A DNA stretch of 64,000 nt, taken from a virus. The DNA is taken from positions 10,031 to 74,030 of IMG/VR virus record IMGVR_UViG_3300031772_002569. One strand, 5' to 3'. Of this stretch, positions 9,315 through 59,659 are shown piece by piece (position 1 is the first letter of the stretch; each line of letters begins with the position of its first letter). The notes beneath the pieces were generated by a model, which made no database searches, was not told the DNA's origin, and worked only from the letters and a program-made list of their open reading frames with translations. Both the position numbers and the translations under genes were made by a program.

Positions 9315-11555
9315 TTATTCTTTTTTTAGAAAAAGTCCATTCATGGTCTTTGAAATGGAACCTATCTCTGTGACATTGATGTTCTTAGCATCTTTTCCAT
9401 ACATTGTTTGAAATTGGCGTAATAGGTGTTCACCAGTGTTTAATCCTAATGGGTGAGGAGATGAATATTCATGTTTGTCTTTAATAAAATAACTCAGAAT
9501 CTTTATTCCGTATGACCTGATTATTTGCATCTGTCGTTTGGTATGGAGTGCCGCGGGTTGTTCTGTATAAGAAAATCCCAGACCATTTGCCGCAGCGAAG
9601 GTATAACAAGGTTCTCCATCCGAAAGATTAAGAAAGTAGTGATCTTCTCCAACGACTCTCTTATTCAAGATACATTCATTCATTATGGCTTCGAAGGCTA
9701 ATCCTTCTGGAGTTCCTCCATTCGGCCTAAGAAACGGAAATAGATTTCTAATTTTGCTAATGTTATCCTTTTCCGAGTCGTATGCGATAACAATATATGG
9801 TAAATCCACCGACCCTATTCGGTGTGTTGCACGTAATGATACCGAAACATGAACGTTTTGAATACGGGATGCTGCTACACAGATAGCTGTCAAACAAGTC
9901 ATTGTAGGCAACCATTTTGTATCGGACGACATAGATCCACTTGAATCTACTGTTATATGCAATCGTGCAACTTCATAACTTTCTTTTTTTAATTTATAGA
10001 AAATGTTTTCTGTGCCGGTTGCTAGTTCCGATAGGATTCTTCTTTCTATTTTTCCTGATGATCGTCTTATGTATTTTATAATATTCGTTTCGTTACGAAT
10101 TTGAAGTCTCTTTCCTAATCTTTTTCCCAAAGCAATTCCGTCTAATACAGCGGATAACGTTTTTTTGTCTGGTTCAGGACTCGTCTGGAAATCATCATGG
10201 GAACAAAATGGGAATACATCTCGTCCGGAAAACATCAATTCTCTCGTAAGATTATTTACAACTACACAATCTACAGTCCTAATTTGTCCCTGTTGTTCAG
10301 CTCCACTAAAATGAGAATGAGCGATGTGAATTCCTGAATTTTCAATAATATCCAACAAAGAACCTTGTTCTTTATTTATTTCCTTTTTAAGATGTTCAGA
10401 ATCATGTTTTAATATTTCCTTGTTTCTATAAAATTGATCTGCGATCTTCTTTATTTGTGATTCTGTAAATTCACTAGTATCTCCACGTGCGTCTTCTGTT
10501 TTTTCTGTTGTTAACTTTTCTGCTTCGGATTTATTACCCCCAATAATATCATCTACATTTTGATTATTATTCTTGGATTCTTCTTTTTTATCCGATGATT
10601 CATCACCGTCGTTTTTATCTCCCTCACCGTCATCACCCTCGTCTTTTGGGGTTGGGGTTGGTGGAACCGAACTATTTCCGCTTTGAGGCATAACATCATC
10701 ATCGGATTTTTTTGAAATCATTTGTGATACCTTCTTGATTGTCTGGTCCATACCACTCGTAGATTGTTTAGATAAAACATCTATGTTATCCAACACGATT
10801 CCTACTAACTCAAATGACAAATCCATTCTAGCCTCAGTTGTTTTAAGACGAAGAATGGAAGATATATCAAATTTTTCGGCTATCTCCAGTAAGGATGGAA
10901 GAGCATCCAAATCTGTGTCGGCATTGGTCAAGTAAACTATTCTATATTCATAACAAGTTAAATTTTTCTTTCTATACATCTTCGATTTCAATGCTGCGCC
11001 GATAGCTTTAGCATTCCAAAGTCGATTGTATAGAGCTTTATAATACCCTCTATATCCGGGAGCTTCATTAAAAATATAAGAATCAATGTATCTGTCTTCT
11101 ACAACATTAAACATCATTTTACAAAACTCGGCCACTTCTTCTCTTCTAAGATTTTTTCTCTTTCCTTTCTCGTATAGCGAGGGAGGAATTTTTAACCACA
11201 TGGATTTAAATACATCAAAATCAGATTTTACTATGTGTGCAGCCTCGTGTAATGCCAATCCAATTGACCAATCAAAATCGGATTTCTTTAGAATTGATGC
11301 GGAGATGTAAACAATCTCCCCATCAGTTGCTCCAGATTCGCCACTATAATACTTTACAGGAATACTTTTATTTGTTAAAATAGATACGAAGTTGGAAATA
11401 ACTCTCCGATATCCAGCCAATTTAATCAAATCCATTGTAAATAATGGTCCTGTGGTAGCATCTTTTTCGTCTTGATCTATATAGGTTTCAAAATTGGTAT
11501 CATCCAACCAATAGTCTGAATAACAGTCTTCGACTTTATTGATGTCATTAGACAT
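9315..11555 (-). CDS. vWA-domain protein with N-terminal zincin-like domain (CobT-like MoxR partner)
   Basis: ATDGE, LHEAAH, NVVEDRYID, acidic linker, MIDAS VDSSGSM...GGTPEG...LSDGEP. Confidence 0.85.
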   Translation of the reverse strand: MSNDINKVEDCYSDYWLDDTNFETYIDQDEKDATTGPLFTMDLIKLAGYRRVISNFVSILTNKSIPVKYYSGESGATDGEIVYISASILKKSDFDWSIGLALHEAAHIVKSDFDVFKSMWLKIPPSLYEKGKRKNLRREEVAEFCKMMFNVVEDRYIDSYIFNEAPGYRGYYKALYNRLWNAKAIGAALKSKMYRKKNLTCYEYRIVYLTNADTDLDALPSLLEIAEKFDISSILRLKTTEARMDLSFELVGIVLDNIDVLSKQSTSGMDQTIKKVSQMISKKSDDDVMPQSGNSSVPPTPTPKDEGDDGEGDKNDGDESSDKKEESKNNNQNVDDIIGGNKSEAEKLTTEKTEDARGDTSEFTESQIKKIADQFYRNKEILKHDSEHLKKEINKEQGSLLDIIENSGIHIAHSHFSGAEQQGQIRTVDCVVVNNLTRELMFSGRDVFPFCSHDDFQTSPEPDKKTLSAVLDGIALGKRLGKRLQIRNETNIIKYIRRSSGKIERRILSELATGTENIFYKLKKESYEVARLHITVDSSGSMSSDTKWLPTMTCLTAICVAASRIQNVHVSVSLRATHRIGSVDLPYIVIAYDSEKDNISKIRNLFPFLRPNGGTPEGLAFEAIMNECILNKRVVGEDHYFLNLSDGEPCYTFAAANGLGFSYTEQPAALHTKRQMQIIRSYGIKILSYFIKDKHEYSSPHPLGLNTGEHLLRQFQTMYGKDAKNINVTEIGSISKTMNGLFLKKE

Positions 11556-38005: not shown

Positions 38006-39505
38006 ATGAAAAAAGACCCTATTATAAAAACTTGTAACTTCTGTGAAAAAGAATACGAGATACCTCATAGAAAAAGAAGTATGGCTTCCACACGTCGGTT
38101 TTGTTCTAAGTCTTGTTCCAATAAAAGCCCTGATGTGATTGAAAAGATAAAACAGAAACAGTTGGAAACATATCAGGAAAAATACGGTGTTAGTCATCCC
38201 ATGAAAACTAAGGAAGTTGTTTCTAAGTTCAAATCATCGATGAAGGAAAAATATGGAGTAGAACATGCTTTATGTTCTTCTGAGTTTTTAGAAAAATCAC
38301 ATGCCACAAAACTAAAAAAATATGGTGATGTTAATTTTAATAACGTCGAAAAAATGAAACAAACTTGTCTGAAGCTTTATGGTGTAGATAATATAAGAAA
38401 ATCCAAGGATGTTGTTGATATGATAAACACGACTGTAATGGATAAACATTTTGATTATCTTATTAAGGTGTGTAAAGAATGTAATATCGCTCTTCTTTTT
38501 AATCGAAAAGAATACGTTGGGTATCATTTTACAAATTCATACAAGTTTAAGTGTGAAGTTTGTGATAATGAATTTTCTAATTCTGTATATCATCTTTCAA
38601 ATTTGTATTGTAACAAATGTCATCCGGATAAACGTTTAAAATTGGAGGGATCGTTTTTTGAATTTTTGAAATTGATTGTTCCATCTAACATAGAAATTAA
38701 AAGAAGAGATAGGGCTATCTTGTATGGAAAGGAATTAGACTTTTTTATTCCATACAAAAAGATATCATTTGAAATTAATGGTCTTTACTGGCACAGTGAA
38801 TGTTCAGGTAATATATCAAAAAACTACCATCTCAACAAGACTAAGAATTGTTTGTTTCACGGAATAAAGTTAATGCATATTTTTGAAAATGAGTGGATAG
38901 AAAAATCGGATATAGTAAAATCCATAATAAGATCAACACTGGGTTATCAATCCAATAGGATTTATGCGAGGGAATGTGTGGTGGGAGAAGTTTCCATAGT
39001 TGATAAGAATAAATTTCTCAATAACAATCATCTTCAAGGAGAAGACAAATCAACCATAAAGTTGGGTCTGTATAAAGATGATGAATTGATGTCAATCATG
39101 ACCTTTAGAAGAACGTCCAGGTTTGACAAGGATGTAGAATGGGAGTTATCTAGGTTTTGTAATAAGTTAGAATATTCCATCGTCGGTGGAGCTAGTAAGT
39201 TGTTTTCTCACTTTGTTGAAAATCATCATCCAAAATCTATAGTTAGTTATAGCGACCGACGATATTTTAGCGGAGAAATTTATTCCATTCTTGGGTTTAA
39301 TTTTATACACAATACTCCACCAAACTATCACTATGTAACAGATGGATATAAAGGGATAAAAAATAGGATGTCATTTCAAAAACACAAATTAAAAAACATA
39401 TTACCTATTTTTGATGATGGTCTGTCGGAGTGGGAAAATATGAAAAAGAATGGATTCGATAGAATCTGGGATTGTGGACACTCTAAATGGATATTTAAAT
39501 CTTAG
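38006..39505 (+). mobile_element. free-standing homing endonuclease-like gene (Zn fingers, KYG repeats, Vsr/PD-(D/E)XK-like domain, C-terminal Mom/GNAT-like domain)
   Basis: CxxC...FCSKSC, repeated EKYGV units, ELDFFIP...FEINGLYWHS...HIFENEW, WELSRFC...SYSDRR; antisense to its neighbours. Confidence 0.75.
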
Positions 39506-41834
39506 AGTCAATAAATACTTCCAAGTGGTCACATACATATCCTTTGGTTAGACTCTTGGATTTATCTCCGAATTCACCGTTTTTTGAAGTCGTGGACATT
39601 CTGTGTAATTCTTTTCGTAAAGCGTCCCTATATGGGCCTGAATCGGTTTTTACCCACCATCCTTTTTTATCCAGTATGTTTTCTTCCTTTACATGTTCAC
39701 CTAGATGGTGCCACAATGGTCCCTCGTATGTGAATTTCTTACGTGATGAATTGGTGTATAAAAACGTATCGTATTTTTCTTCCCACGACTTATCATCATC
39801 CGCATCTACATCCACGCCTTTTTTCGCTCTTTGAAAAGACCAAGGAGATCCTTCTTCTTTGTCTGTTAATTTTTTATAATCAGGATGTTGATTAGTTATT
39901 TTGTTTCCTTCTTTGTCTTTGACGTATTGTGTTCTTTGTCTCTGTCCTTTTCCTCTACTCTTCGGATCTGTGAATTCGCTTCCTCCTAACAGAAATTTTT
40001 CTATGTAAGGCCACACAAATGCGTAAATACCTTTTTTGGATGGAGGTTGATGGAATGTGGAATCTTCTTCTCTTCCTCCTTTATATCCTTTTTGCTTTGT
40101 TAAACTTAATCCACCGTAAGTTACAAACGTTAACTTTTTATCTTTAAATGGATTATGTTTTTCCTCTTTTATTCCTGTTTTTAATTTGAATGATGGACAG
40201 TGCATAGAATGTTTTAACGTATCCGATGAATCGATACTGCTTTTGTGTTTTTTAATGATTCTTCCTGTTTTGTTTTTTATCCAAATAGATGCTGATTGTT
40301 TAATTTCATCATCTGGATTACCCCACCAAAAAATGAAATCTGAATCCTCTCTCCATCTCCACCTGTCATCGTTTCTGTTATATCCAGGTACTTGAAAATG
40401 AGTCAAAACTTCGTCTGACGAATTTATTGCTTTAACGTTATAGTCATTATCCACGGTTCCTACCCATATTCGAGTTTTGTTTTCTTTATTTTCTTTCAGT
40501 GAAGCTTTTTTGTCATACAACTGATTAATTCCGTCTCTCAATTTTTTAAGTTGGCCAAATTGTCTCAATGACTTGAAAACTATATTTTCATTACTAAATT
40601 CTCCCTTGGAACTAAGCCCCACTTCTCGGTATGCAGTGATAGATTTCATTAATTCTTTAAGGTTTTCTAAGTCTTCTGACTCTAATGAGGATTTTATCTT
40701 GTGACAAATTTGGTGGTATTTTTTCTTTATTAATCCTCTATCGAGTTGTATGTTTTGTTTTTCTGGTTCTTTAACCCATTCATCAGTCAATACTGAATAG
40801 ACTCCTATTGAACGATTGTTGTCGCCTAAATCTTGTATATAAACTTCTACATTATGACCCTTTATTCTTATCGATTCGTGTTCTGTGTTCCATCTGAATC
40901 CATAATTATTCATTATTTTTCTTACATATTCCGGATCAATTTTTTCCTTAGATATGTCAACGACTATATGAAGATCTATGTCGCTGGAGGGAGTCCAGTT
41001 GTAGTTTGCTGAAGAACCTAAAAATAGTATGTCCTCTATTCCTTGTTTTAAATCTGTGTTTTTATAGAAATCACTGGCTACACTTAACAAGCTTTTTCTT
41101 ACTTCTGGTCTAAGTTTATTTTCATCATTCCAAAGATTTTTATCTAAACTTTTATTTACCACTCTCATTTTGGATTCTGCAATAGAACCTTTCATGTAAT
41201 TGGCTTGAGCTATGCTTTTATAGTCTCCTTGTGCTTGTATTTTTTTTGCGTATGAATTTTTAATATTACTCTCTAATTCATCGTCAGTCATTCCTACACT
41301 TTGTTGTAACGATTTTATCTTTTTTCTTAGAATTATTTTTTCGTCTGGAGTAGCAGTGTGTAATTGTATGATTAATGATATTAACTCTTTTCTGATATCC
41401 TGACTCATTTCCTTTGAATTTGTAGTAATTTTTGGTTTCCATTTTTCTAGGTATCTACTATTCGAAAATTCCCAATCAAATTCTTTTATGTTTAATCGTA
41501 ATTTTTTAAACATATCCTCTATTACTTGATGATATTTATAGGTAGTTTCTCGGCTATCATATACCGATGCTATATAATTTTCCGGCCACATGCGACCACA
41601 TACTAATTCTTTAGAGTAGTCTGAGGGGTCTATTGAATCTCTTAACGATTCGTGCCATCCATGAATGTAATCAGTACTGGTATGGATACATTTTATTTGT
41701 GTATCAGAACCATTACGTGATTGATATACCAAGAAAGCAACATTCGGCTTTTGGTCTGAACAACTTATTATTTCTTCTCCATTGAACGAGACTGTATCCG
41801 GATCTTCTTTTAAGATGGGGACTTTTGTATGCAT
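39495..41834 (-). CDS. multidomain protein with a Pol-beta-superfamily nucleotidyltransferase domain (putative polyprotein)
   Basis: GSSANYNW...SDIDLHIVVD, VEVYIQD, GEFSNENIVFKSLR; segments separated by ILKE, IAE, LKE and IKE. Confidence 0.8.
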   Translation of the reverse strand: MHTKVPILKEDPDTVSFNGEEIISCSDQKPNVAFLVYQSRNGSDTQIKCIHTSTDYIHGWHESLRDSIDPSDYSKELVCGRMWPENYIASVYDSRETTYKYHQVIEDMFKKLRLNIKEFDWEFSNSRYLEKWKPKITTNSKEMSQDIRKELISLIIQLHTATPDEKIILRKKIKSLQQSVGMTDDELESNIKNSYAKKIQAQGDYKSIAQANYMKGSIAESKMRVVNKSLDKNLWNDENKLRPEVRKSLLSVASDFYKNTDLKQGIEDILFLGSSANYNWTPSSDIDLHIVVDISKEKIDPEYVRKIMNNYGFRWNTEHESIRIKGHNVEVYIQDLGDNNRSIGVYSVLTDEWVKEPEKQNIQLDRGLIKKKYHQICHKIKSSLESEDLENLKELMKSITAYREVGLSSKGEFSNENIVFKSLRQFGQLKKLRDGINQLYDKKASLKENKENKTRIWVGTVDNDYNVKAINSSDEVLTHFQVPGYNRNDDRWRWREDSDFIFWWGNPDDEIKQSASIWIKNKTGRIIKKHKSSIDSSDTLKHSMHCPSFKLKTGIKEEKHNPFKDKKLTFVTYGGLSLTKQKGYKGGREEDSTFHQPPSKKGIYAFVWPYIEKFLLGGSEFTDPKSRGKGQRQRTQYVKDKEGNKITNQHPDYKKLTDKEEGSPWSFQRAKKGVDVDADDDKSWEEKYDTFLYTNSSRKKFTYEGPLWHHLGEHVKEENILDKKGWWVKTDSGPYRDALRKELHRMSTTSKNGEFGDKSKSLTKGYVCDHLEVFIDSKI

Positions 41835-51589: not shown

Positions 51590-52759
51590 TTATCCTATAT
51601 AAATAAGCAATGGAACTCTCTTTAATGTATCTTGAACGAATTCAGCCTCCCTAGCGCGATCTTCCATTTGTTGTTTCTTGCCAGTGGCCTCAAGACTTTC
51701 CCTCAACTCGGTTATATATTTTTCTTTTTCCTGTTGTGCTTCATTTCTAAGTTCCGCACCATCGAGAGTAACCTCTCCTCCAGGAATAGGAATGGTTTGG
51801 TATTTTTGTCTAATTGAACCAAGTAGTTCCTTACATAGAGCAAGAAAATACTTCCTAATCCATTGCTTACTAACATCGTTGATAGATCCATACACGATGT
51901 TATTATATGGAATATTTGAGAAATCGGATACAAATTGTCCAGCAGAACCAGATTGGAAAGACCCGCTAAATCGTTCATTCTTTACGACATAATCGAAATA
52001 TATACGAAACTGACTCTGAGGTATAGGAAACAATCTTAATTTATTGTTGACTATTTCAAAGGAAAAAGCAGACTTACGAACCATATCATTGAATTCAATA
52101 GCTTGACCACGAAGCAAATCTTCGAAAATAGGAGTCATAAGAAACTGAACAGCGGGAGAATATGCACCAAATCCCAACTCATTCAAAACATTAGAATAAC
52201 TCATACCAGTCATGGAGAATGGATCGTAAATACGAGCCATAGCAGGAGTTCTTTCATTAAAAACCCTCATCACATCGATTTTATTAAAACTTTCAGATAC
52301 GTTACCCCACAAGGATTGAATGTCGTATGTTTGTTGATATGGAACAGTTGTAATAGATCCGCGTTTCCAATCGGTATTTCCACCAACACCAACTTCTGTT
52401 CCGTATCCCTTTGCCAACTCCACGATAACAGACATTGGGGTTCCGGTTACGTTTTGTCCGGACAAATTACCTATTTGATTAATATTCTGTCCTTGAAATA
52501 CCTGAATGTAATTACGAATATTGAACTGATTTAACTGAGCACCAAACTCATTGACAGCTTCTTCAAAACACGCATAGAAATTTTTATCCAACATTTCTAT
52601 ATCAACAACGGGATATCCCAACCTCAAAGCTGCCCATACAGCCGCGCCCATCGCGTCTGATTGAAATTCTATATCAGAATCATAAATTCCGAATGGTGTG
52701 CTGCTAGAGACTGCCGAACCGGACCCGGGCCACCTCACCCTATCTTGGTCAATTAACAT
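51590..52759 (-). CDS. neck / head-tail adaptor protein (T4 gp13-like)
   Basis: LRLGYPVVDIEM, CFEEAV, WIRKYFLALCKELLG.IR.KY..IPIPGGEVTLDG. Confidence 0.85.
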   Translation of the reverse strand: MLIDQDRVRWPGSGSAVSSSTPFGIYDSDIEFQSDAMGAAVWAALRLGYPVVDIEMLDKNFYACFEEAVNEFGAQLNQFNIRNYIQVFQGQNINQIGNLSGQNVTGTPMSVIVELAKGYGTEVGVGGNTDWKRGSITTVPYQQTYDIQSLWGNVSESFNKIDVMRVFNERTPAMARIYDPFSMTGMSYSNVLNELGFGAYSPAVQFLMTPIFEDLLRGQAIEFNDMVRKSAFSFEIVNNKLRLFPIPQSQFRIYFDYVVKNERFSGSFQSGSAGQFVSDFSNIPYNNIVYGSINDVSKQWIRKYFLALCKELLGSIRQKYQTIPIPGGEVTLDGAELRNEAQQEKEKYITELRESLEATGKKQQMEDRAREAEFVQDTLKRVPLLIYIG

Positions 52760-53730
52760 ACAACCCCCTTATTATCAGATACATACATCATATTATGATT
52801 GAATTTTTTGATAGGAAAAACTTTGGTTTTATCTTTATTCCAATCATACCAATCTTTTTCCCACATATAATAAATATGATAACCTAATTCGTTTAATCTA
52901 TTAAACTTTTTGATTGTGTTATCATATAATTCTCCAAAAGTTTTATGACATTTTTTATTAAATTTAGAATGTTCATATCGTATGGGATTTCCATGATAGT
53001 AATCTCCTAAGAATTCATAAATCTTTTTTCCTTTTATTCCATCTACTTTAAACGGATGAATTACCTTTTGTCGATTTTCTATCAAATCAGGTATTCTAAT
53101 ATAGTTTAAAAATTCAATTTCTGGTTTAGATATTTGTGTGACACATTTTAAACATCCCTTTCCTTCCATGTGTCCCCTCGCTCTCTGATAAAACCATCCA
53201 TGAATAGGACATTTTATTTTGACTTTAGTTCTATTATTGATATAATTTACTTGGGAATAGTCATACTTGTTTTTGTGAATAATGTATGATTGTTTTATAA
53301 ATTCATCTTTAGTCAATCTTACAGTTCCACCACACAACGGACATCCATCTTCATTTAAATGATCATTTGGAGATTGTGAAAATTTTCCGTGTAATTTACA
53401 TATAATTACCACCTTTTCCCTATTATTATCACCATATTTAACAAATGAATAATCATACTTATTTGTATGACATTTAACTGCTTTTTTTATAAATGATTCT
53501 GTAGTATCTCTAAATTTAATAGATAATTTTTGATTCTTACACTTTGGGCAACCACTTTTTTTACCAATATGATTATCAGAAGAAACCATAAAAGTTCCGT
53601 GAATTTTACAACAAACTTGTAACTTCAATCTAGCAGAAACATAGATTGTATTAGAATAGTCATATTTTTTGTTGTGAACTTCTTTAGATCTCTTTATAAA
53701 TTCCTCTGTAGTTATTCTTGATTTCATCAT
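52753..53730 (-). mobile_element. free-standing homing endonuclease-like gene (three KYDYS...C..HG Zn-ribbon repeats plus Vsr-like nuclease)
   Basis: Three repeats of FIK.....H..KYDYS...Y......I.C..HG.F.....H....GC..C, then KVDG...YEFLGDYYHG...YMWEKDW. Confidence 0.8.
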
Positions 53731-53788: not shown

Positions 53789-55558
53789 ATGAAAATTATA
53801 TTATACAATTTAATAAATGAGATTTTGTTAGAAACATCCGACGCAAAATCCACCTTCATTCTCGGTAGAGTTTCCGATGATGGAGAGGTTGACAAATGGG
53901 AATTTGATGATACGGTAACTGCCACACATCCTTCGACTTGGTATTCAAGTCACTATGAACGTTGGAGATATTACGCAGGCAGTCAATACATTTATTGGTG
54001 GAGTCTGCCGTCTCAAATTCAAAAAGAATCAGTAGAATATTTCATAGGATCAAGAGGATTTGATGTAAAAGGGCATAAAGCCAACATACACTTTTTATCA
54101 GATTTTAGTAAAGTAACAGGTTATAAACTCACAGAAAATATGTTAAATGAAGGAAGAAAAGAAAAAGCAGCAGAAGACTTTATCAAACAGACCATAAAAG
54201 GAACTCAGTGGCAAGGTAAAGTTTTCATAGCTGGTGGTTACGTCCGAGATGAATTTATGGGCAAAGACCCAAAGGATTTGGATTTGTTAGTAAATACACC
54301 AAACGGAGGAATTGAATTTGCAAACTGGATAACCAGAAAAATTGGTGCATACAAAGACGGAAGCAATCCGGTAACGTTTCCTCGTTTCGGAACAGCCAAA
54401 TTTAATCTTTTCGGTGTAACTCATGACGGAATTGATTTGAGTGATATGGATATTGAAGCAGTAATGCCTCGTAAGGAACAATACACAGCAGGAAGTAGAA
54501 AGCCAGATGTTACTGGTGGAGAATTAAAAGACGACGTAGAAAGACGCGACTTCACAGTTAACTCATTATTAAAAGATTTAAGTACCGGAGAAATCTTAGA
54601 TTTGACGGGTATGGGAAAAGATGATATCAAAAAAGGTATTGTCAGAACTCCATTAAATGCCGATAAGATTTTTACCGACGACCCTCTTAGAATGTTACGT
54701 GCGGTTCGTTTTGCCATGAAATACAAATGGAAACTTCCCATGTTCATGATTCGTGCATTAAAGAAGAATGCTCCACAACTTAAAAACATTTCACAGGAAC
54801 GTATTCGTGATGAATTGGACAAGATGTTAATGACAACGAACCCCCACGGTTCAATAAAACTCCTAAAGGTTGCTGGATTGTTATCCCATGTCATTCCTGA
54901 ACTTATACCAGCAGTAAAGATGAAACAGAACATCCATCACAAACACGATGTATTTCATCATATTCTTGATGTTCTATCTAAGTCTAATCCTGTACTAGTT
55001 CAGAGATTAATGGCCTTATTTCATGATATTGGAAAAACTGTAACCAAGAGTGTGACTCCAACAGGAGTTCATTTCTACGGTCACGAAATGGTTGGATCCG
55101 ACATGGTAGAATCCATCATGACAAGGTTGAAATACCCAAGAGAATTAATCGATGCTGTAAAATTAGGTGTAAGAAACCACATGCGATTAAAGTCAGCAGG
55201 AGATACAGGAATAAATATATCAGACAAAGCACTTAGAAAATTCAAATCTGAAATTGGAGATAAGATAGAAGACGTATTAGCAGTAATCCATGCTGATAAC
55301 ATTTCTCATGCGGATGCTTCAGCGATGCCTAATCAAGTAAACAATCTCAAGGTTAGACTCGATAACCTAAATATGAACGTTGCCGCTGGTGGAAAACCAA
55401 AACTTCCTATTACCGGAAACGATTTACAATCCATCGGATTAAAACCAGGTCCAATTTACAGTGAAATAATGAAAGCTGTAACAGAAGCTTGGTTTGAAAA
55501 TCCAAACATTACAAAGGAACAGGCATTGGAAATTGCAAAGTCTGTAGCAAAAGTATGA
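53789..55558 (+). CDS. cca: CCA-adding tRNA nucleotidyltransferase with HD domain and an extra N-terminal module
   Basis: AGGYVRD...KDLDL, FGTA, DVERRDFTVNSL, DDPLRMLRAVRF, ISQERIRDEL, HHKHDV..H, ALFHDIGK. Confidence 0.9.
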   Translation: MKIILYNLINEILLETSDAKSTFILGRVSDDGEVDKWEFDDTVTATHPSTWYSSHYERWRYYAGSQYIYWWSLPSQIQKESVEYFIGSRGFDVKGHKANIHFLSDFSKVTGYKLTENMLNEGRKEKAAEDFIKQTIKGTQWQGKVFIAGGYVRDEFMGKDPKDLDLLVNTPNGGIEFANWITRKIGAYKDGSNPVTFPRFGTAKFNLFGVTHDGIDLSDMDIEAVMPRKEQYTAGSRKPDVTGGELKDDVERRDFTVNSLLKDLSTGEILDLTGMGKDDIKKGIVRTPLNADKIFTDDPLRMLRAVRFAMKYKWKLPMFMIRALKKNAPQLKNISQERIRDELDKMLMTTNPHGSIKLLKVAGLLSHVIPELIPAVKMKQNIHHKHDVFHHILDVLSKSNPVLVQRLMALFHDIGKTVTKSVTPTGVHFYGHEMVGSDMVESIMTRLKYPRELIDAVKLGVRNHMRLKSAGDTGINISDKALRKFKSEIGDKIEDVLAVIHADNISHADASAMPNQVNNLKVRLDNLNMNVAAGGKPKLPITGNDLQSIGLKPGPIYSEIMKAVTEAWFENPNITKEQALEIAKSVAKV

Positions 55559-56403
55559 TCAAATTAAAAAATCTCATAGATGAAAATGTAATAGACACAC
55601 TACAAACGATTGGTGATTTTAGTAAAGGTTCTTCTTTTACTAATAAATCAGACCGTGCATTAGTCACACATCCTGTAGCCGTCCAAAAGATAAAAGATTT
55701 TTTCAAGAATACAAAAGAGAACTTTGACTTATATTTCGTAAATACAAAACATGCTAGAAAATATATGGAACTAGGAGAAGTTAAAGAGAGTTTTATTTTT
55801 GATGATTTAAAAGTTACTCCTGACCAATTAAAAAACGGAGAAATTAATCATAATAACATTACAGTATTTTTTACCAACAACAAAGGAGATGAAAGAGCAC
55901 CTTTTACTCCTTGGATTATGGCACATAGACTCGGCCATGTAATAAGGCGAGTCTATACATGGGAAAAAGAACTAAATCCCTGGATAAATAAACATCTTAT
56001 TGACATATTGAATTCATACGGAGTATCACCAGTAAAATACTCCCCCTATAGTTACGGAAATGATGGAAGTGGTAATTATGCATCTTTTAGACGATATGAA
56101 TTGGCCAAACGTCATCTATGTGAAACCCTCGGAACATTCAAAAGTGCAAGAAATAAAAATCTAAGAAATTATGGAGAGTTTAACTATGAATTATTTGCAC
56201 AATATCTAAAAGACGGAAAGATAACTCTAAACAATCTTCCTGATGTCTTATTGATAGGACACGCTGCGTTTGGAAGAAAAGATCTAAGAAGATTGAAAAA
56301 TAGGGAACATGCAGATGAGTCTTTGACCGAACTAAGAGAGAATTATGAGTATCATGCAGAATCAGTATTGAGCGAATGTGTAGGTAAAATATTTGTGATG
56401 TAA
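55555..56403 (+). CDS. MIKLK-leader protein with degenerate zincin-like motif
   Basis: Leader MIKLKNLIDE; WIMAHRLGHVI and downstream ELFAQY. Confidence 0.75.
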   Translation: MIKLKNLIDENVIDTLQTIGDFSKGSSFTNKSDRALVTHPVAVQKIKDFFKNTKENFDLYFVNTKHARKYMELGEVKESFIFDDLKVTPDQLKNGEINHNNITVFFTNNKGDERAPFTPWIMAHRLGHVIRRVYTWEKELNPWINKHLIDILNSYGVSPVKYSPYSYGNDGSGNYASFRRYELAKRHLCETLGTFKSARNKNLRNYGEFNYELFAQYLKDGKITLNNLPDVLLIGHAAFGRKDLRRLKNREHADESLTELRENYEYHAESVLSECVGKIFVM

Positions 56404-56404
56404 C

Positions 56405-57088
56405 ATGATAAAGTATGCAAAATCTAAATTTGGCAGAATTCGTTTTGAATATAAAGATGCCGCTGACAAATCAGTAAACAAAGGATGGGTGGTAGATATG
56501 GTGAATGCATATATTGACGACAAGCCAATAGGATATTTAAAAATATCTTATGTTCCCGATTCAAATGTCAAAGACGTATTTCCGGATGTAATTCATTATC
56601 TTGGTTCGGAACATAAAGGATTTAGTAAATTAAGGGCTGCTTTAATAAAAGACGATAAAAAAAATATAACTCGTGCATTATCACAAATGCAAGACCCCTG
56701 GAGTCAATGGATAGAAAATCTCGAAAGCAGAGGGGAATTAAAAGGAATGGATCAAAACTGGTGGGATGAACAATATAAAAGATTAGAAAAGGAAGTCACA
56801 GAAAGACATAAAAAAGATTACGAACAATTTTTGGATGATGTCCATAACAAACCATTGGTGGATTACATAAAAGTAGAAAAGGATTATCAACAAGGCGGAA
56901 TTGGTTTGGGATTGTATATTGCTGGAGCTACATGGATGGCGAAAAAGAGAATGTGTTTATTTGCTTCATCATTACAATCTCCTGAGGCTAAAAAAAGTTG
57001 GGATAAGATGAAACGAATTGGAATGCCCATAAAAACCGTAAAACAAAAAAACGGACGAATTAGAACTTGTTTAGATTATAGAAAGTAA
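56405..57088 (+). CDS. GNAT-like acetyltransferase
   Basis: IGYLKI...VDYIKVEKDYQQGGIGLGLY...SSLQSPEAKKSW, a GNAT acetyl-CoA loop pattern with a helical insertion. Confidence 0.65.
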   Translation: MIKYAKSKFGRIRFEYKDAADKSVNKGWVVDMVNAYIDDKPIGYLKISYVPDSNVKDVFPDVIHYLGSEHKGFSKLRAALIKDDKKNITRALSQMQDPWSQWIENLESRGELKGMDQNWWDEQYKRLEKEVTERHKKDYEQFLDDVHNKPLVDYIKVEKDYQQGGIGLGLYIAGATWMAKKRMCLFASSLQSPEAKKSWDKMKRIGMPIKTVKQKNGRIRTCLDYRK

Positions 57089-57089
57089 C

Positions 57090-57497
57090 ATGATAAAACT
57101 AAAAACATTAGTAACAGAGAATTTAACAAAGAGAAAGTATTCAGGAGTATCATTGGATTCTGAGTCTCATAATAAGTTAAAAACACACTTCTCTGATAAA
57201 ATTCCAGAAGGATGGGAAATCATAGCCCATCACATGACCATAAATCCATTTGGTCCCACACCAGAAGAATTGTTAAATAAGAATGTCACATTAAAAGTTA
57301 CCGAGGTAGGTAAAAGCGACAAAGCCTTGGCAGTAAAAGTATCAGGATATGAAGGCAAAACAAACAACAAGTTTCCTCATATAACGATTGCTATAGATAG
57401 AAATGGTGGAGCCAAACCCAAAGATTCAAATGATATTGTTCATTGGGAGCCAGTAAGAGATGATATTTATCTTAAAGGAACCATAAAGGATTTATGA
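57090..57497 (+). CDS. 2H phosphoesterase (tRNA-ligase CPDase-like) with MIKLK leader
   Basis: Two HxT motifs (HHMTI, PHITIA) and KPKDSNDI..W. Confidence 0.78.
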   Translation: MIKLKTLVTENLTKRKYSGVSLDSESHNKLKTHFSDKIPEGWEIIAHHMTINPFGPTPEELLNKNVTLKVTEVGKSDKALAVKVSGYEGKTNNKFPHITIAIDRNGGAKPKDSNDIVHWEPVRDDIYLKGTIKDL

Positions 57498-57787
57498 TAA
57501 AATTAAAATCATTACTAACAGAAAATCAAAGAACATTCCGAGGCGACTGCCGAACTATTCTTGATAGAGATGATTTGTTTGATGACGCCACAGAAATGGC
57601 GCAAGCGGTCGAGAATAGTGAGGCCATAACATATCAACAATTTATGAGTTTGGCAGACCTAACCGGGATAAATAAACTTTTCAAATTGAAATTAAGAAGA
57701 GAAACCGACCATTTTGATTTTGCACAGTATAAGGATTTGGTATGGGCATACGATAAAGATACTGACATACACTATTTCTTTTTATGA
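57494..57787 (+). CDS. MIKLK-leader hypothetical protein
   Basis: Leader MIKLKSLLTE; C-terminal YDKDTDIHYFF. Confidence 0.75.
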   Translation: MIKLKSLLTENQRTFRGDCRTILDRDDLFDDATEMAQAVENSEAITYQQFMSLADLTGINKLFKLKLRRETDHFDFAQYKDLVWAYDKDTDIHYFFL

Positions 57788-58341
57788 TAAAACTAAAGGA
57801 TATACTTTTAGAATCTGTACAGGCAATAAACCCGCCTGCACAGATTCAACCCCATATTCAATCTGTATTTGATAGATCTTTTATAGATTACATAAAATTT
57901 GTAGAAAATGGGAATCGTGTGGGATATGATAAAAATAAAAAACTTTGGTTCCCCTATGCGAAAGCAGAGAATGGAAACGTTGTCATTGCTTATGGTCACA
58001 AAAGCAAATCACCAATTGAGACAAAATCACTAAAAAAAGGCATAACCGATGACCAAGCAGAAAGACTGTTAATATCGGATTTAGAGATTGCAAAACAATT
58101 AGTGAACAAATACATTGAAAAGAAATATAAGGTAAAATTGTTACTGGATAAGAATCAGAATGAAATTCTTACAGACTTTGCATTCAATTTAGGTGGATTA
58201 GAAAAATTTCCCAAATTTGTAGATGCTGTCTTGAAAAAAGATTGGAAAGTAGTCAAAAAAGAATACAAAAGAAACACGGATGGAAACATGTTAACCAAGA
58301 GAAATCAAGAATTTTTTAATAGATATTTAACACAATTATGA
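57784..58341 (+). CDS. phage lysozyme (GH24-like) with MIKLK leader
   Basis: IKFVENG, IAYGH, GITDDQAERLLISDL, LTDFAFNLG..L.KFPKF..A....DW, RN. Confidence 0.8.
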   Translation: MIKLKDILLESVQAINPPAQIQPHIQSVFDRSFIDYIKFVENGNRVGYDKNKKLWFPYAKAENGNVVIAYGHKSKSPIETKSLKKGITDDQAERLLISDLEIAKQLVNKYIEKKYKVKLLLDKNQNEILTDFAFNLGGLEKFPKFVDAVLKKDWKVVKKEYKRNTDGNMLTKRNQEFFNRYLTQL

Positions 58342-58880
58342 TAAGCCTATCAAAAATATTAAGCGAAGAGAGAACCAGTGAGAGTATAGAATACGGGTGT
58401 CTCATGGCCGAAATACCTGCATCCATTTGTAACAAATTAGTTACATTCGGAAACAAATTAATTTCGGAAGAAGATTTGTATAAAGAAGGTGAAGAATTTG
58501 GTAGAGAAAAAGAATGTCATGTAACCATCAAATACGGATTCACAGGAAATTTAAATGCAGAAGATATAAAATCAATATTGGATGGGGTGGTAGATTTTAA
58601 AATATCAATCAATAAAATTGGAATGTTTTCGTCAAAAGATAAACCATTTGATGTCGTAAAATTTGACGTGGTAAAAGATGAAGCTTTGATGAAATTGAAT
58701 AAGAGATGTAATGAATTTCCTCACGAGGATACCTATCCTGGATACAATCCACATGTAACTATTGCCTATGTCAAAAAAGGTAAATTTAAACATGGTGAAA
58801 TACCTATTAATTTGGTGATACCAATACATACGGTTTGTTATTCTACTGTAGATAATAAAAAATCCTATTACAAGGTATGA
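58338..58880 (+). CDS. 2H phosphoesterase, Acb1/T4 gp57B-like, with leader
   Basis: YGCLM, CHVTIKYG, FDVVKFDV, YPGYNPHVTIAY; leader MISLSKILSE. Confidence 0.78.
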   Translation: MISLSKILSEERTSESIEYGCLMAEIPASICNKLVTFGNKLISEEDLYKEGEEFGREKECHVTIKYGFTGNLNAEDIKSILDGVVDFKISINKIGMFSSKDKPFDVVKFDVVKDEALMKLNKRCNEFPHEDTYPGYNPHVTIAYVKKGKFKHGEIPINLVIPIHTVCYSTVDNKKSYYKV

Positions 58881-59659
58881 TTAAACTTAGAGATTTAATT
58901 TTGGAAGGAGAGAACGATAGGATACAATCCGAGGTAGAATCCCTACAAAAAAATCTATATCAAAAATATCCAGAATTACAAGACCTACACATCTACATAC
59001 AATCTAATGGAACATTGTTCATTGGTTCAATAAAGGTTAAATTAGAGTCTCGCAGACAAGGAATAGGCAAAAATGTAATCAGAGACATAAAAAAATTTGC
59101 CGACGACCATAATCTAATAATTGTTCTAGCTCCGGAGCCAGAAAGAGGATACAAAAAGAAGTTAGATAGATTTTATAAGGATTTAGGATTCATTCCAAAT
59201 CAAGGAAGACAAAAAAATTATGGATTATCTTCTTTCTTCGGTAAAACAATGTATCGTAAACCCGGAGTAAAGGAAGACATAAATGAAGAAATTCCTGATG
59301 TTTTTTATCATGCTACGTTCAATGAACTGATACCATCAATCAGTAATAAGGGATTGGTTCCAGGAGGCATAGATTATCAAAATTTTGAAGGATGTGAATC
59401 GGGAGTTTATCTGTCTGACGATTACTCTTTTGCGGGAAGTATGATAGAAGGCGGTTCTGAAAATGAAGATATTCCAGATGAATGGTTTGATAATATAGTA
59501 GTAATATTGATTGACCCAAATAAACTAGATTTGACCAAGATGGAAAAAGACCCACATGTAAACATATCCGCCGACGACGAACACATACCTCGTTCTTTTA
59601 TATATAAAGGTATTATACCAACCAGCGCTTTTATAGAAATAGTCGATTTCAGTGGATAA
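58877..59659 (+). CDS. GNAT plus ADP-ribosyltransferase/Tpt1-like fusion with MIKL leader
   Basis: IKV....RRQGIGK...LDRFYKDLGF (GNAT); linker VKEDINEE; FYHAT...SI...GL.P...GVYLS...IYKGIIP (ART fold). Confidence 0.72.
   Translation: MIKLRDLILEGENDRIQSEVESLQKNLYQKYPELQDLHIYIQSNGTLFIGSIKVKLESRRQGIGKNVIRDIKKFADDHNLIIVLAPEPERGYKKKLDRFYKDLGFIPNQGRQKNYGLSSFFGKTMYRKPGVKEDINEEIPDVFYHATFNELIPSISNKGLVPGGIDYQNFEGCESGVYLSDDYSFAGSMIEGGSENEDIPDEWFDNIVVILIDPNKLDLTKMEKDPHVNISADDEHIPRSFIYKGIIPTSAFIEIVDFSG

Follow-up and report, generated by a model that had tools for sequence, protein, structure and literature searches.

In bacteriophage T4, a 10-residue N-terminal capsid-targeting sequence (CTS) directs internal proteins to the core of the prohead and is then removed by the prohead protease gp21, an enzyme that cuts after the Glu of L/I-x-E sites and that also processes gp23 (PMC9026906). 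The giant phages phiKZ, 201phi2-1 and SPN3US cleave many of their head proteins behind the Glu of short motifs, trim off large propeptides with multiple sites and eject enzymes into the host (PMC9026906). A third related setting is that of the polyvalent proteins of phages and conjugative elements (Iyer et al. 2017, PMC5512222), in which many effector domains are united in one polypeptide. Here, we describe a protein module that shares features with each of these systems. It is encoded twice in a 64,000-nucleotide stretch of viral DNA (positions 10,031 to 74,030 of the IMG/VR record IMGVR_UViG_3300031772_002569; hereafter the window), once directly behind a Pol-beta-type nucleotidyltransferase (NTase) and once ahead of a CCA-adding enzyme. 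We consider the chances about even that this module serves as an autonomous cargo cassette among the injected proteins of the head interior and is excised by the prohead protease.

The first copy belongs to P0001, an open reading frame (ORF) of 779 amino acids (aa) on the minus strand (39495-41834), in which window positions 40242-40475 encode residues 454-531; the second belongs to P0002, a CCA-adding enzyme of 589 aa on the plus strand (53789-55558), in which positions 53849-54079 encode residues 21-97. An earlier note made from the sequence of the window had proposed that these two stretches are alike, and both the likeness and its coordinates proved correct: BLASTP of the whole proteins returned a single significant segment, P0001 446-534 against P0002 13-100, with 26 of 89 residues identical (29%; E 2e-7). 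A hidden Markov model (HMM) built from the two copies was then compared with 1.84 billion cluster representatives, of which 64 proteins scored at E<=1e-3 and 14 even at E<=1e-10, while the iterated profile counted 114 copies in 64 proteins, two weak matches having been lost on iteration (a word-indexed homolog search had found 5 proteins only). Because the profile of just these two copies retrieves a family of this size from 1.84 billion proteins, their similarity reflects homology, and chance similarity is rejected by this search as well as by the BLASTP E-value. A six-frame HMM scan of the 74-kb contig found the two known copies and no third. Recent duplication within the genome can likewise be dismissed, since the copies are only 29% identical and each is closer to same-enzyme copies in other phages, the closest relatives of copy 1 being linked to NTases and those of copy 2 to CCA enzymes.

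The consensus of the family opens with three hydrophobic residues and a Gly (112 of 114 copies), followed by x-[VI]-[DN]-x-[DN]-[GL]-x-[VI]. Between strands 2 and 3 lies a variable loop with a His in all but two of the 114 copies, and Arg47 is kept in 109. The core reads [RK]-W-R-[YFW]-[RK]-x-D-x-N-x-[VIL]-[YF]-W-W-x-x-P and leads into a helix with K, V, [WYF]-L and K-K-x-G, to which a His at position 84 is added in 58 of 114 copies. Near-invariant positions are the Gly, the loop His, W-R-[YFW], W-W and the Pro. This domain family is covered by no curated resource that we searched. Pfam-A gave no match to the module at E<=1 for P0001 and P0002 or at E<=10 for ten members that are short or consist of the module alone (remote links can escape HMMER), no PHROG covers it, a profile search of PDB sequences returned nothing below E 0.1 and an ESM Atlas look-up led to unnamed clusters only, with low recognition. 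A scan of genome contigs with P0047 found no relative, and tblastn with a three-copy and a stand-alone member found no match in 50,697 GenBank phage records, so that no cultured phage carrying the module came to light. All relatives are metagenomic and, as far as seen, the family is confined to large uncultured myoviruses of the T4 superfamily.

The architectures in which the module occurs are diverse, and its stand-alone and array-only forms suggest that it is an autonomous unit. At least 16 representatives (99-161 aa) consist of a single module behind a short leader, and P0008 (four copies) as well as P0016 and P0030 (three each) are arrays in which no other Pfam domain was detected. The commonest form, with about 20 representatives, carries one to five modules after a P0001-type Pol-beta NTase, and among the 64 representatives this NTase always has modules behind it. 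One to three modules precede CCA-adding enzymes in P0002, P0005, P0024, P0034, P0065 and an ortholog encoded by G001, a 250.8-kb IMG/VR contig (74% complete) with a P0001 ortholog of 62-66% identity. Other fusions involve ART-PolyVal and GNAT (P0015), a leader, module and ART-PolyVal (P0060), Nudix, module and lysozyme (P0061) and a weak ParB_N match (P0026); modules are also found inside proteins of 2300-3350 aa with GNAT, methyltransferase and a C-terminal DUF7178. The link to nucleotidyltransferases is real and recurrent, yet it is a subset of a wider fusion pattern. For 21 of 90 arrayed copies, the best match lies inside the same protein. The giant, GC-rich and likewise metagenomic P0046, P0049, P0029 and P0017 (2314-3352 aa) each hold two module copies together with a GNAT or methyltransferase domain, and the first three of them end in DUF7178.

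Both window copies are bracketed by motifs of a hydrophobic residue, any residue and Glu (h-x-E), equal to the L/I-x-E site of T4 gp21. Copy 1 (P0001 449-557; 40164..40490, minus strand; BLASTP E 2e-7, HMM 88 bits; conserved core 40242-40475) is flanked by two candidate prohead-protease sites on the same strand, LKE448 (L446-K-E448; 40491..40499), 11 residues ahead of the conserved Gly, and IKE557 (I555-K-E557; 40164..40172), between the module and the C-terminal domain. Copy 2 (P0002 16-116; 53834..54136, plus strand; core 53849-54079), which is supported by BLASTP, the HMM and an AlphaFold topology equal to that of copy 1, lies between LLE15 and the candidate sites LTE116 and LNE121 (54128..54151, plus strand), the latter two separating it from the CCA enzyme. 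Bracketing by [LI]-x-E had been claimed from these two copies; the sites are indeed there, but within P0001 and P0002 alone the motif is not enriched (7 and 5 occurrences against 8.0 and 5.0 in shuffles), and it is the family-wide positional test that gives the bracketing its weight. Upstream, [LIVMF]-x-E with its Glu 4-16 residues before the invariant Gly (Gly13) occurs in 84 of 112 copies, most often at 9-12 residues, whereas positions drawn at random from these proteins gave 22.6+-4.3 and, over 1000 trials, 38 at most; this enrichment underlies the assignment of LKE448. Downstream of the last copy, the motif occurs within 40 residues in 25 of 32 proteins against 14.8+-2.7 expected, which applies to IKE557. 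Aligned on the Glu, the motif logo shows L/I/V at P3, E at P1 and mostly S/A/G/N at P1'. In 41 of 98 copies, a semi-conserved A-H-G stands 10-25 residues past module position 84 and directly before the downstream h-x-E, as in A-H-G-L-S-E and A-H-G-M-L-E, and this element could be part of the protease recognition or a C-terminal element of the domain.

How the module moves among genes can be seen by comparing the window with G001. Window gene 55555 consists of a leader and its cargo, whereas its G001 ortholog reads leader, module, E-N-I-K-E and cargo. Together with the many architectures and the lack of a counterpart in Pfam, PHROGs, PDB and BFVD, this supports the proposal of the earlier note that the element is a mobile, possibly undescribed small domain. 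In the G001 ortholog of the CCA gene, a GNAT-like domain stands in front and the leader has become internal (I-K-L-K-E-I-I-Y-E), followed by the module, V-M-E / L-N-E and the enzyme. The P0001 ortholog of the same contig (L004 805-2826, minus strand) begins exactly at P0001's I-A-E220 and holds an additional domain of ~130 aa between NTase and module, whose conserved Cys, His and Asp make it possibly one of the transglutaminase or cysteine-peptidase type. Lysozyme, GNAT and a third domain are likewise combined differently in the window phage and in G001. Adjacent leader-tagged genes thus fuse and split, and a leader or h-x-E site usually survives at the joint, with Q-K-E instead of h-x-E at one G001 joint. 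As a side observation, the module of L004 805-2826 has R-W-R-E where the window has R-W-R-W-R-E, a two-residue difference in the most conserved strand.

A protease of the fitting kind is encoded by relatives of the window phage, which its tail sheath places in the broad T4 superfamily. G001 encodes an S77 prohead protease (E 2e-23), and its gp23-like capsid protein (88680-90395, minus strand) has L-L-E52 and I-D-E61 in the N-terminal region; leader-bearing genes directly adjoin the protease, the capsid gene and the presumed portal (assigned by position only). All four module-bearing contigs of at least 120 kb, i.e. G001 and G002-G004 (120, 208 and 279 kb), have an S77 protease, while none was detected in two short module-bearing fragments or in four complete module-less contigs of 110-309 kb, which had been picked up by chance in a pattern scan and served as controls (positive control of the search: T4 at 4e-113). 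Four of four against none of four is a small sample (p about 0.014 by exact test) and points in the same direction as the cargo reading. The gene just upstream of the G001 protease (103364-104997, minus strand) starts with M-I-R-L-K-N-L-I-K-I-Q-E, continues with a Pro/Ala/Glu-rich stretch and has a scaffold-like look.

AlphaFold predicts the same fold for both copies, with a mean predicted local distance difference test (pLDDT) of 90.1 and a predicted TM score (pTM) of 0.80 for copy 1 (19 sequences) and of 85.5 and 0.80 for copy 2 (36 sequences, including copies cut from IMG/VR loci). Both models have a beta-beta-beta-beta-alpha-beta-alpha topology and the same order of elements: strand, strand, short helix, strand, strand, long helix, strand, helix. 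The third strand carries R-W-R-Y-R and the fourth ends in W-W. The upstream h-x-E motif falls within the first ten residues, whose mean pLDDT is only 66 in both models, so that this segment looks like a linker rather than a part of the fold. On these predictions the module may well be an autonomous folded domain of ~85-100 aa, which we put, jointly with the whole cargo reading, at an even chance. Foldseek of the models against PDB and BFVD returned nothing below E 0.03 (best BFVD match at E 0.036) and hence no significant match to a known structural domain, a search the earlier note had named as a check. A VIA-wide structure comparison gave best Z scores of 4.7 and 5.4 for the two models; according to the VIA guidance, unmatched models typically reach a best Z of 7-8, which puts 5.4 below a meaningful level. 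Gelsolin-type domains head all four PDB lists (TM 0.41-0.49, Z <=5.4 over 81 residues, root-mean-square deviation 3.8 A). Gelsolin and ADF-H domains share with the module a central sheet accompanied by a long and a short helix, but TM stays below 0.5, identity is 5-14% and no gelsolin Pfam family was reported, and the likeness is therefore at most one of arrangement, with no sign of kinship.

Taken as cargo, the module would be made behind a short amphipathic leader or within a precursor polyprotein, with L/I/V-x-E sites on its flanks. Leader or precursor would bring it to the core of the prohead, where it would be freed by the S77 (gp21-type) prohead protease, and it would be injected with the DNA alongside co-packaged enzymes, namely the Pol-beta NTase and the CCA-adding enzyme in the window phage and ART, GNAT, Nudix, lysozyme and 2H phosphoesterase elsewhere. 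Its own activity would most likely be the stoichiometric binding of a conserved ligand (a nucleotide, RNA end or DNA) via His, Arg and Trp. That the module has a function of its own, and a stoichiometric one, is suggested by its stand-alone and array-only genes. Phages from AT-rich to GC-rich share these few polar and aromatic residues, which speaks for a universal ligand, be it a nucleotide, an RNA end, DNA or a conserved surface of the phage, rather than for a fast-evolving host protein, and the conserved His, Arg and Trp suggest, as far as we can infer, a nucleotide or nucleic acid. The near-neutral charge disfavours simple DNA condensation; a basic, DNA-condensing internal protein was considered and found unsupported at a median isoelectric point (pI) of 6.6. 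ART-PolyVal, GNAT, Nudix and lysozyme, to which the module is fused, are typical of polyvalent effectors delivered by virions (PMC5512222). Co-delivery with nucleotidyltransferases, as put forward in the earlier note, fits the cleavage-type motifs, the CTS-like leaders and the S77 proteases of relatives from which it would be inferred, but is too narrow, because ART, GNAT, Nudix, lysozyme and unknown cargo are further partners of the module; as a whole, the earlier interpretation is partly supported.

Several observations weigh against the cargo reading. The module is near neutral (median pI 6.6, net charge about zero), while T4 internal proteins are basic. The upstream motif is absent from 28 of 112 copies, and P0046 and P0049 have F-S-P-like junctions ahead of their modules instead of h-x-E, which hints at other processing or none. 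Most NTase-module proteins are without an N-terminal leader that could target them, and no S77 protease was found in the window's own 74-kb contig, which is ~22% complete and without head genes. Packaging and cutting of the family members are predictions from sequence, and the binding pocket is conjecture. Finally, each window copy groups with same-enzyme copies, which would also fit a dedicated role in cis.

The leaderless NTase proteins would suit a different reading, in which the module is a prohead-core anchor or filler: a folded extension of the targeting signal that would bind scaffold, portal or shell, bring the enzymes in and then be removed or inert, with no role in the infected cell. 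T4 propeptides act in this way (PMC9026906), and an anchor would account for NTases that mostly lack a leader and yet, in the 64 representatives, are always followed by modules. That very different phages keep the same few residues would fit a conserved partner on the phage side, and arrays would raise avidity. Where a leader is present, however, leader-module-cargo and leader-cargo orthologs coexist, which makes the module dispensable for targeting; stand-alone leader-module genes would bear two signals and no cargo, and the same NTase family works without modules in cyanophages. We regard the anchor as unlikely, though with a real chance of being right.

The same grouping by enzyme type leads to the idea that the module is an uncleaved accessory in cis, binding RNA or tRNA and so lending substrate affinity to template-independent RNA nucleotidyltransferases, and that h-x-E is merely a linker habit. 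RNA 3'-end NTases are indeed the two partners met most often, with about 20 Pol-beta/MTPAP-like proteins next to six CCA enzymes; the subfamilies of the module follow the type of enzyme, and strands 3 and 4 carry conserved Arg and aromatic residues. Such an accessory would hardly be expected as stand-alone or array-only proteins, nor fused to lysozyme, Nudix, ART, GNAT and unknown cargo; moreover, the CCA body already has its own RNA-binding and tail domains, the net charge of the module is about zero and cleavage-type motifs between module and enzyme are kept in orthologs. If the flanking sites are cut, an adaptor role in cis becomes unlikely, and overall we hold this explanation to be improbable. 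Very improbable, in our judgement, is a small enzyme, e.g. a phosphoesterase or RNase based on His and Arg, with host RNA or signalling nucleotides as its substrate. The loop His (112/114) and Arg47 (109/114) would suit it, as would the frequent His84 and downstream A-H-G and the 2H phosphoesterases among the neighbouring cargo, but His84 is present in only 58 of 114 copies and A-H-G in only 41 of 98, no acidic or general-base partner is conserved, arrays of 3-5 tandem copies characterise binding modules rather than enzymes and no hydrolase structure matched above Z 4.

Measured against the described systems, the cargo reading finds its closest parallel in the T4 internal proteins IPI, IPII and IPIII. 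Like the module proteins, these have ~80-190 aa and an N-terminal peptide of ~10 residues ending in Glu, and both systems have L/I-x-E cut sites, plastic cassette-like genes and a gp21-type protease, which in the case of the module is found in related genomes. They differ in that the module profile has no match in the T4 genome at E<=1, in the basic character of the T4 proteins and in the tandem arrays and polyproteins with enzymes, which are formed by the module and not by T4 internal proteins; besides, packaging of the module is a prediction from sequence. Polyvalent proteins resemble the module proteins in uniting many effector domains in one polypeptide (ART-PolyVal, GNAT, Pol-beta NTase, lysozyme, methylase) and in their predicted delivery with DNA and processing into pieces. 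Several unrelated effector domains per polypeptide, the defining trait of that class, are present in P0001 with its four segments and in relatives of up to 3352 aa. For the module, however, processing is predicted to be carried out by the S77 head protease at h-x-E linkers, whereas polyvalent proteins are predicted to use a zincin-like peptidase within the protein, and its carriers are T4-like myoviruses, unlike the settings of polyvalent proteins. Pfam (LPD families included, if in this release) gave no module match and, for P0001, weak NTase matches only.

Giant phages use S/A/G-x-E sites and a diverged protease, as opposed to the L/I/V-x-E flanks of the module, and their internal head protein families gave no match to it (no Pfam match; best BFVD E 0.036). 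The sponges Tad1, Tad2 and Acb2 were absent from the Foldseek and VIA PDB matches and from the PDB sequence search, a result with which a remote relation is still compatible.

P0001 (39495..41834, minus strand), a putative precursor, comprises a leader ending in L-K-E10, an N-terminal domain, the NTase, the module and a C-terminal domain. Its Pol-beta-type NTase domain (residues 221-446; 40497..41174, minus strand), directly upstream of the module and preceded by I-A-E220, matches phrog_36119 at E 2.8e-41 and, weakly, MTPAP-like, NTP_transf_2 and Polbeta models. The G001 ortholog has V-A-E in place of I555-K-E557, just ahead of a conserved KHNPFKD that opens the next domain, and P0013 starts with a P0001-like leader and N-terminal sequence and has its modules after residue 450. 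Stand-alone homologs of the phrog_36119 NTase are known from Synechococcus phage S-H34, where a protein of ~237 aa without module is encoded among replication genes (L001 4001-4714), and from other T4-like cyanophages and Lak phages; one record labels such a homolog an aminoglycoside nucleotidyltransferase. The gene downstream of the S-H34 NTase, seemingly reached by a tblastn alignment, is not a module.

P0002 opens with a 15-residue amphipathic, CTS-like leader (53789..53833, plus strand) with Glu at 11 and 15 (I-N-E, L-L-E). The sites that follow its module are kept as V-M-E / L-N-E in G001 and as I-M-E / L-N-E in P0005. From residue 145 onwards (54221..55558, stop codon included, plus strand) extends the body of a class II CCA-adding enzyme with a PolyA_pol head, an RNA-binding region, an HD domain and tRNA_NucTran2_2 (Pfam E 9e-19, 2e-15, 4e-6 and 1e-6), which matches phrog_2244 at E 2e-57.

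Leaders of this kind are not restricted to the module genes. Seven plus-strand genes in 53789-59659 open with a conserved amphipathic peptide (the CCA gene, 55555, 57090, 57494, 57784, 58338 and 58877), 56405 being the single gene skipped among eight. In the six genes downstream of the CCA gene that have it (55555..59659, plus strand), the leader is an M-I-K-L-K-x-L-x-x-E decapeptide with its Glu at position 10, as in the L-K-E10 of P0001. A MIKLKxLLxE-type leader also opens many family members from unrelated contigs, and in sequence it resembles the T4 CTS. Among the tagged genes, 57784 encodes a phage lysozyme (E 8e-10) and 58338 a 2H/LigT phosphoesterase (E 9e-9) that also touches the Acb1 model (E 7e-4), while 57090 has a weak tRNA-ligase CPD-like match and 58877 a weak GNAT match. 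The region 53789-59659 (plus strand) is operon-like, with start codons that overlap or abut the preceding stop. It could represent a candidate injected kit for RNA repair and anti-signalling.

If packaging is confirmed, these phages would deliver tRNA-repair and signal-degrading enzymes as protein, ahead of gene expression. The module is a marker of an apparent T4-style system of capsid targeting and protease processing with far more cargo than the three internal proteins of T4, the apparent cargo including a CCA-adding enzyme, a second RNA nucleotidyltransferase, lysozyme, 2H phosphoesterases, ART and GNAT. Going one step further, one may imagine capsids pre-loaded with an anti-defence kit that is cut by the head protease, in which the WRY-WW module is a many-copy injected binder that soaks up a host immune signal or protects RNA ends that are damaged, and in which the CCA-adding, NTase and 2H-phosphoesterase enzymes injected with it mend tRNA within seconds of the start of infection; we offer this as a long shot. 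The module is also of structural interest, its fold being confidently predicted and having no clear solved relative, and the rules of leader and linker could be reused for loading foreign proteins into capsids.

Finally, two similar ORFs, at 38006-39505 (plus strand) and 52753-53730 (minus strand), directly adjoin the two module-bearing genes of the window. Both contain repeated Cys-rich 'KYDYS/KYGV' units and a C-terminal nuclease-like region, and they may be homing-endonuclease-like. G001 keeps the Cys-rich-repeat ORF beside its CCA gene (L005 20-988).

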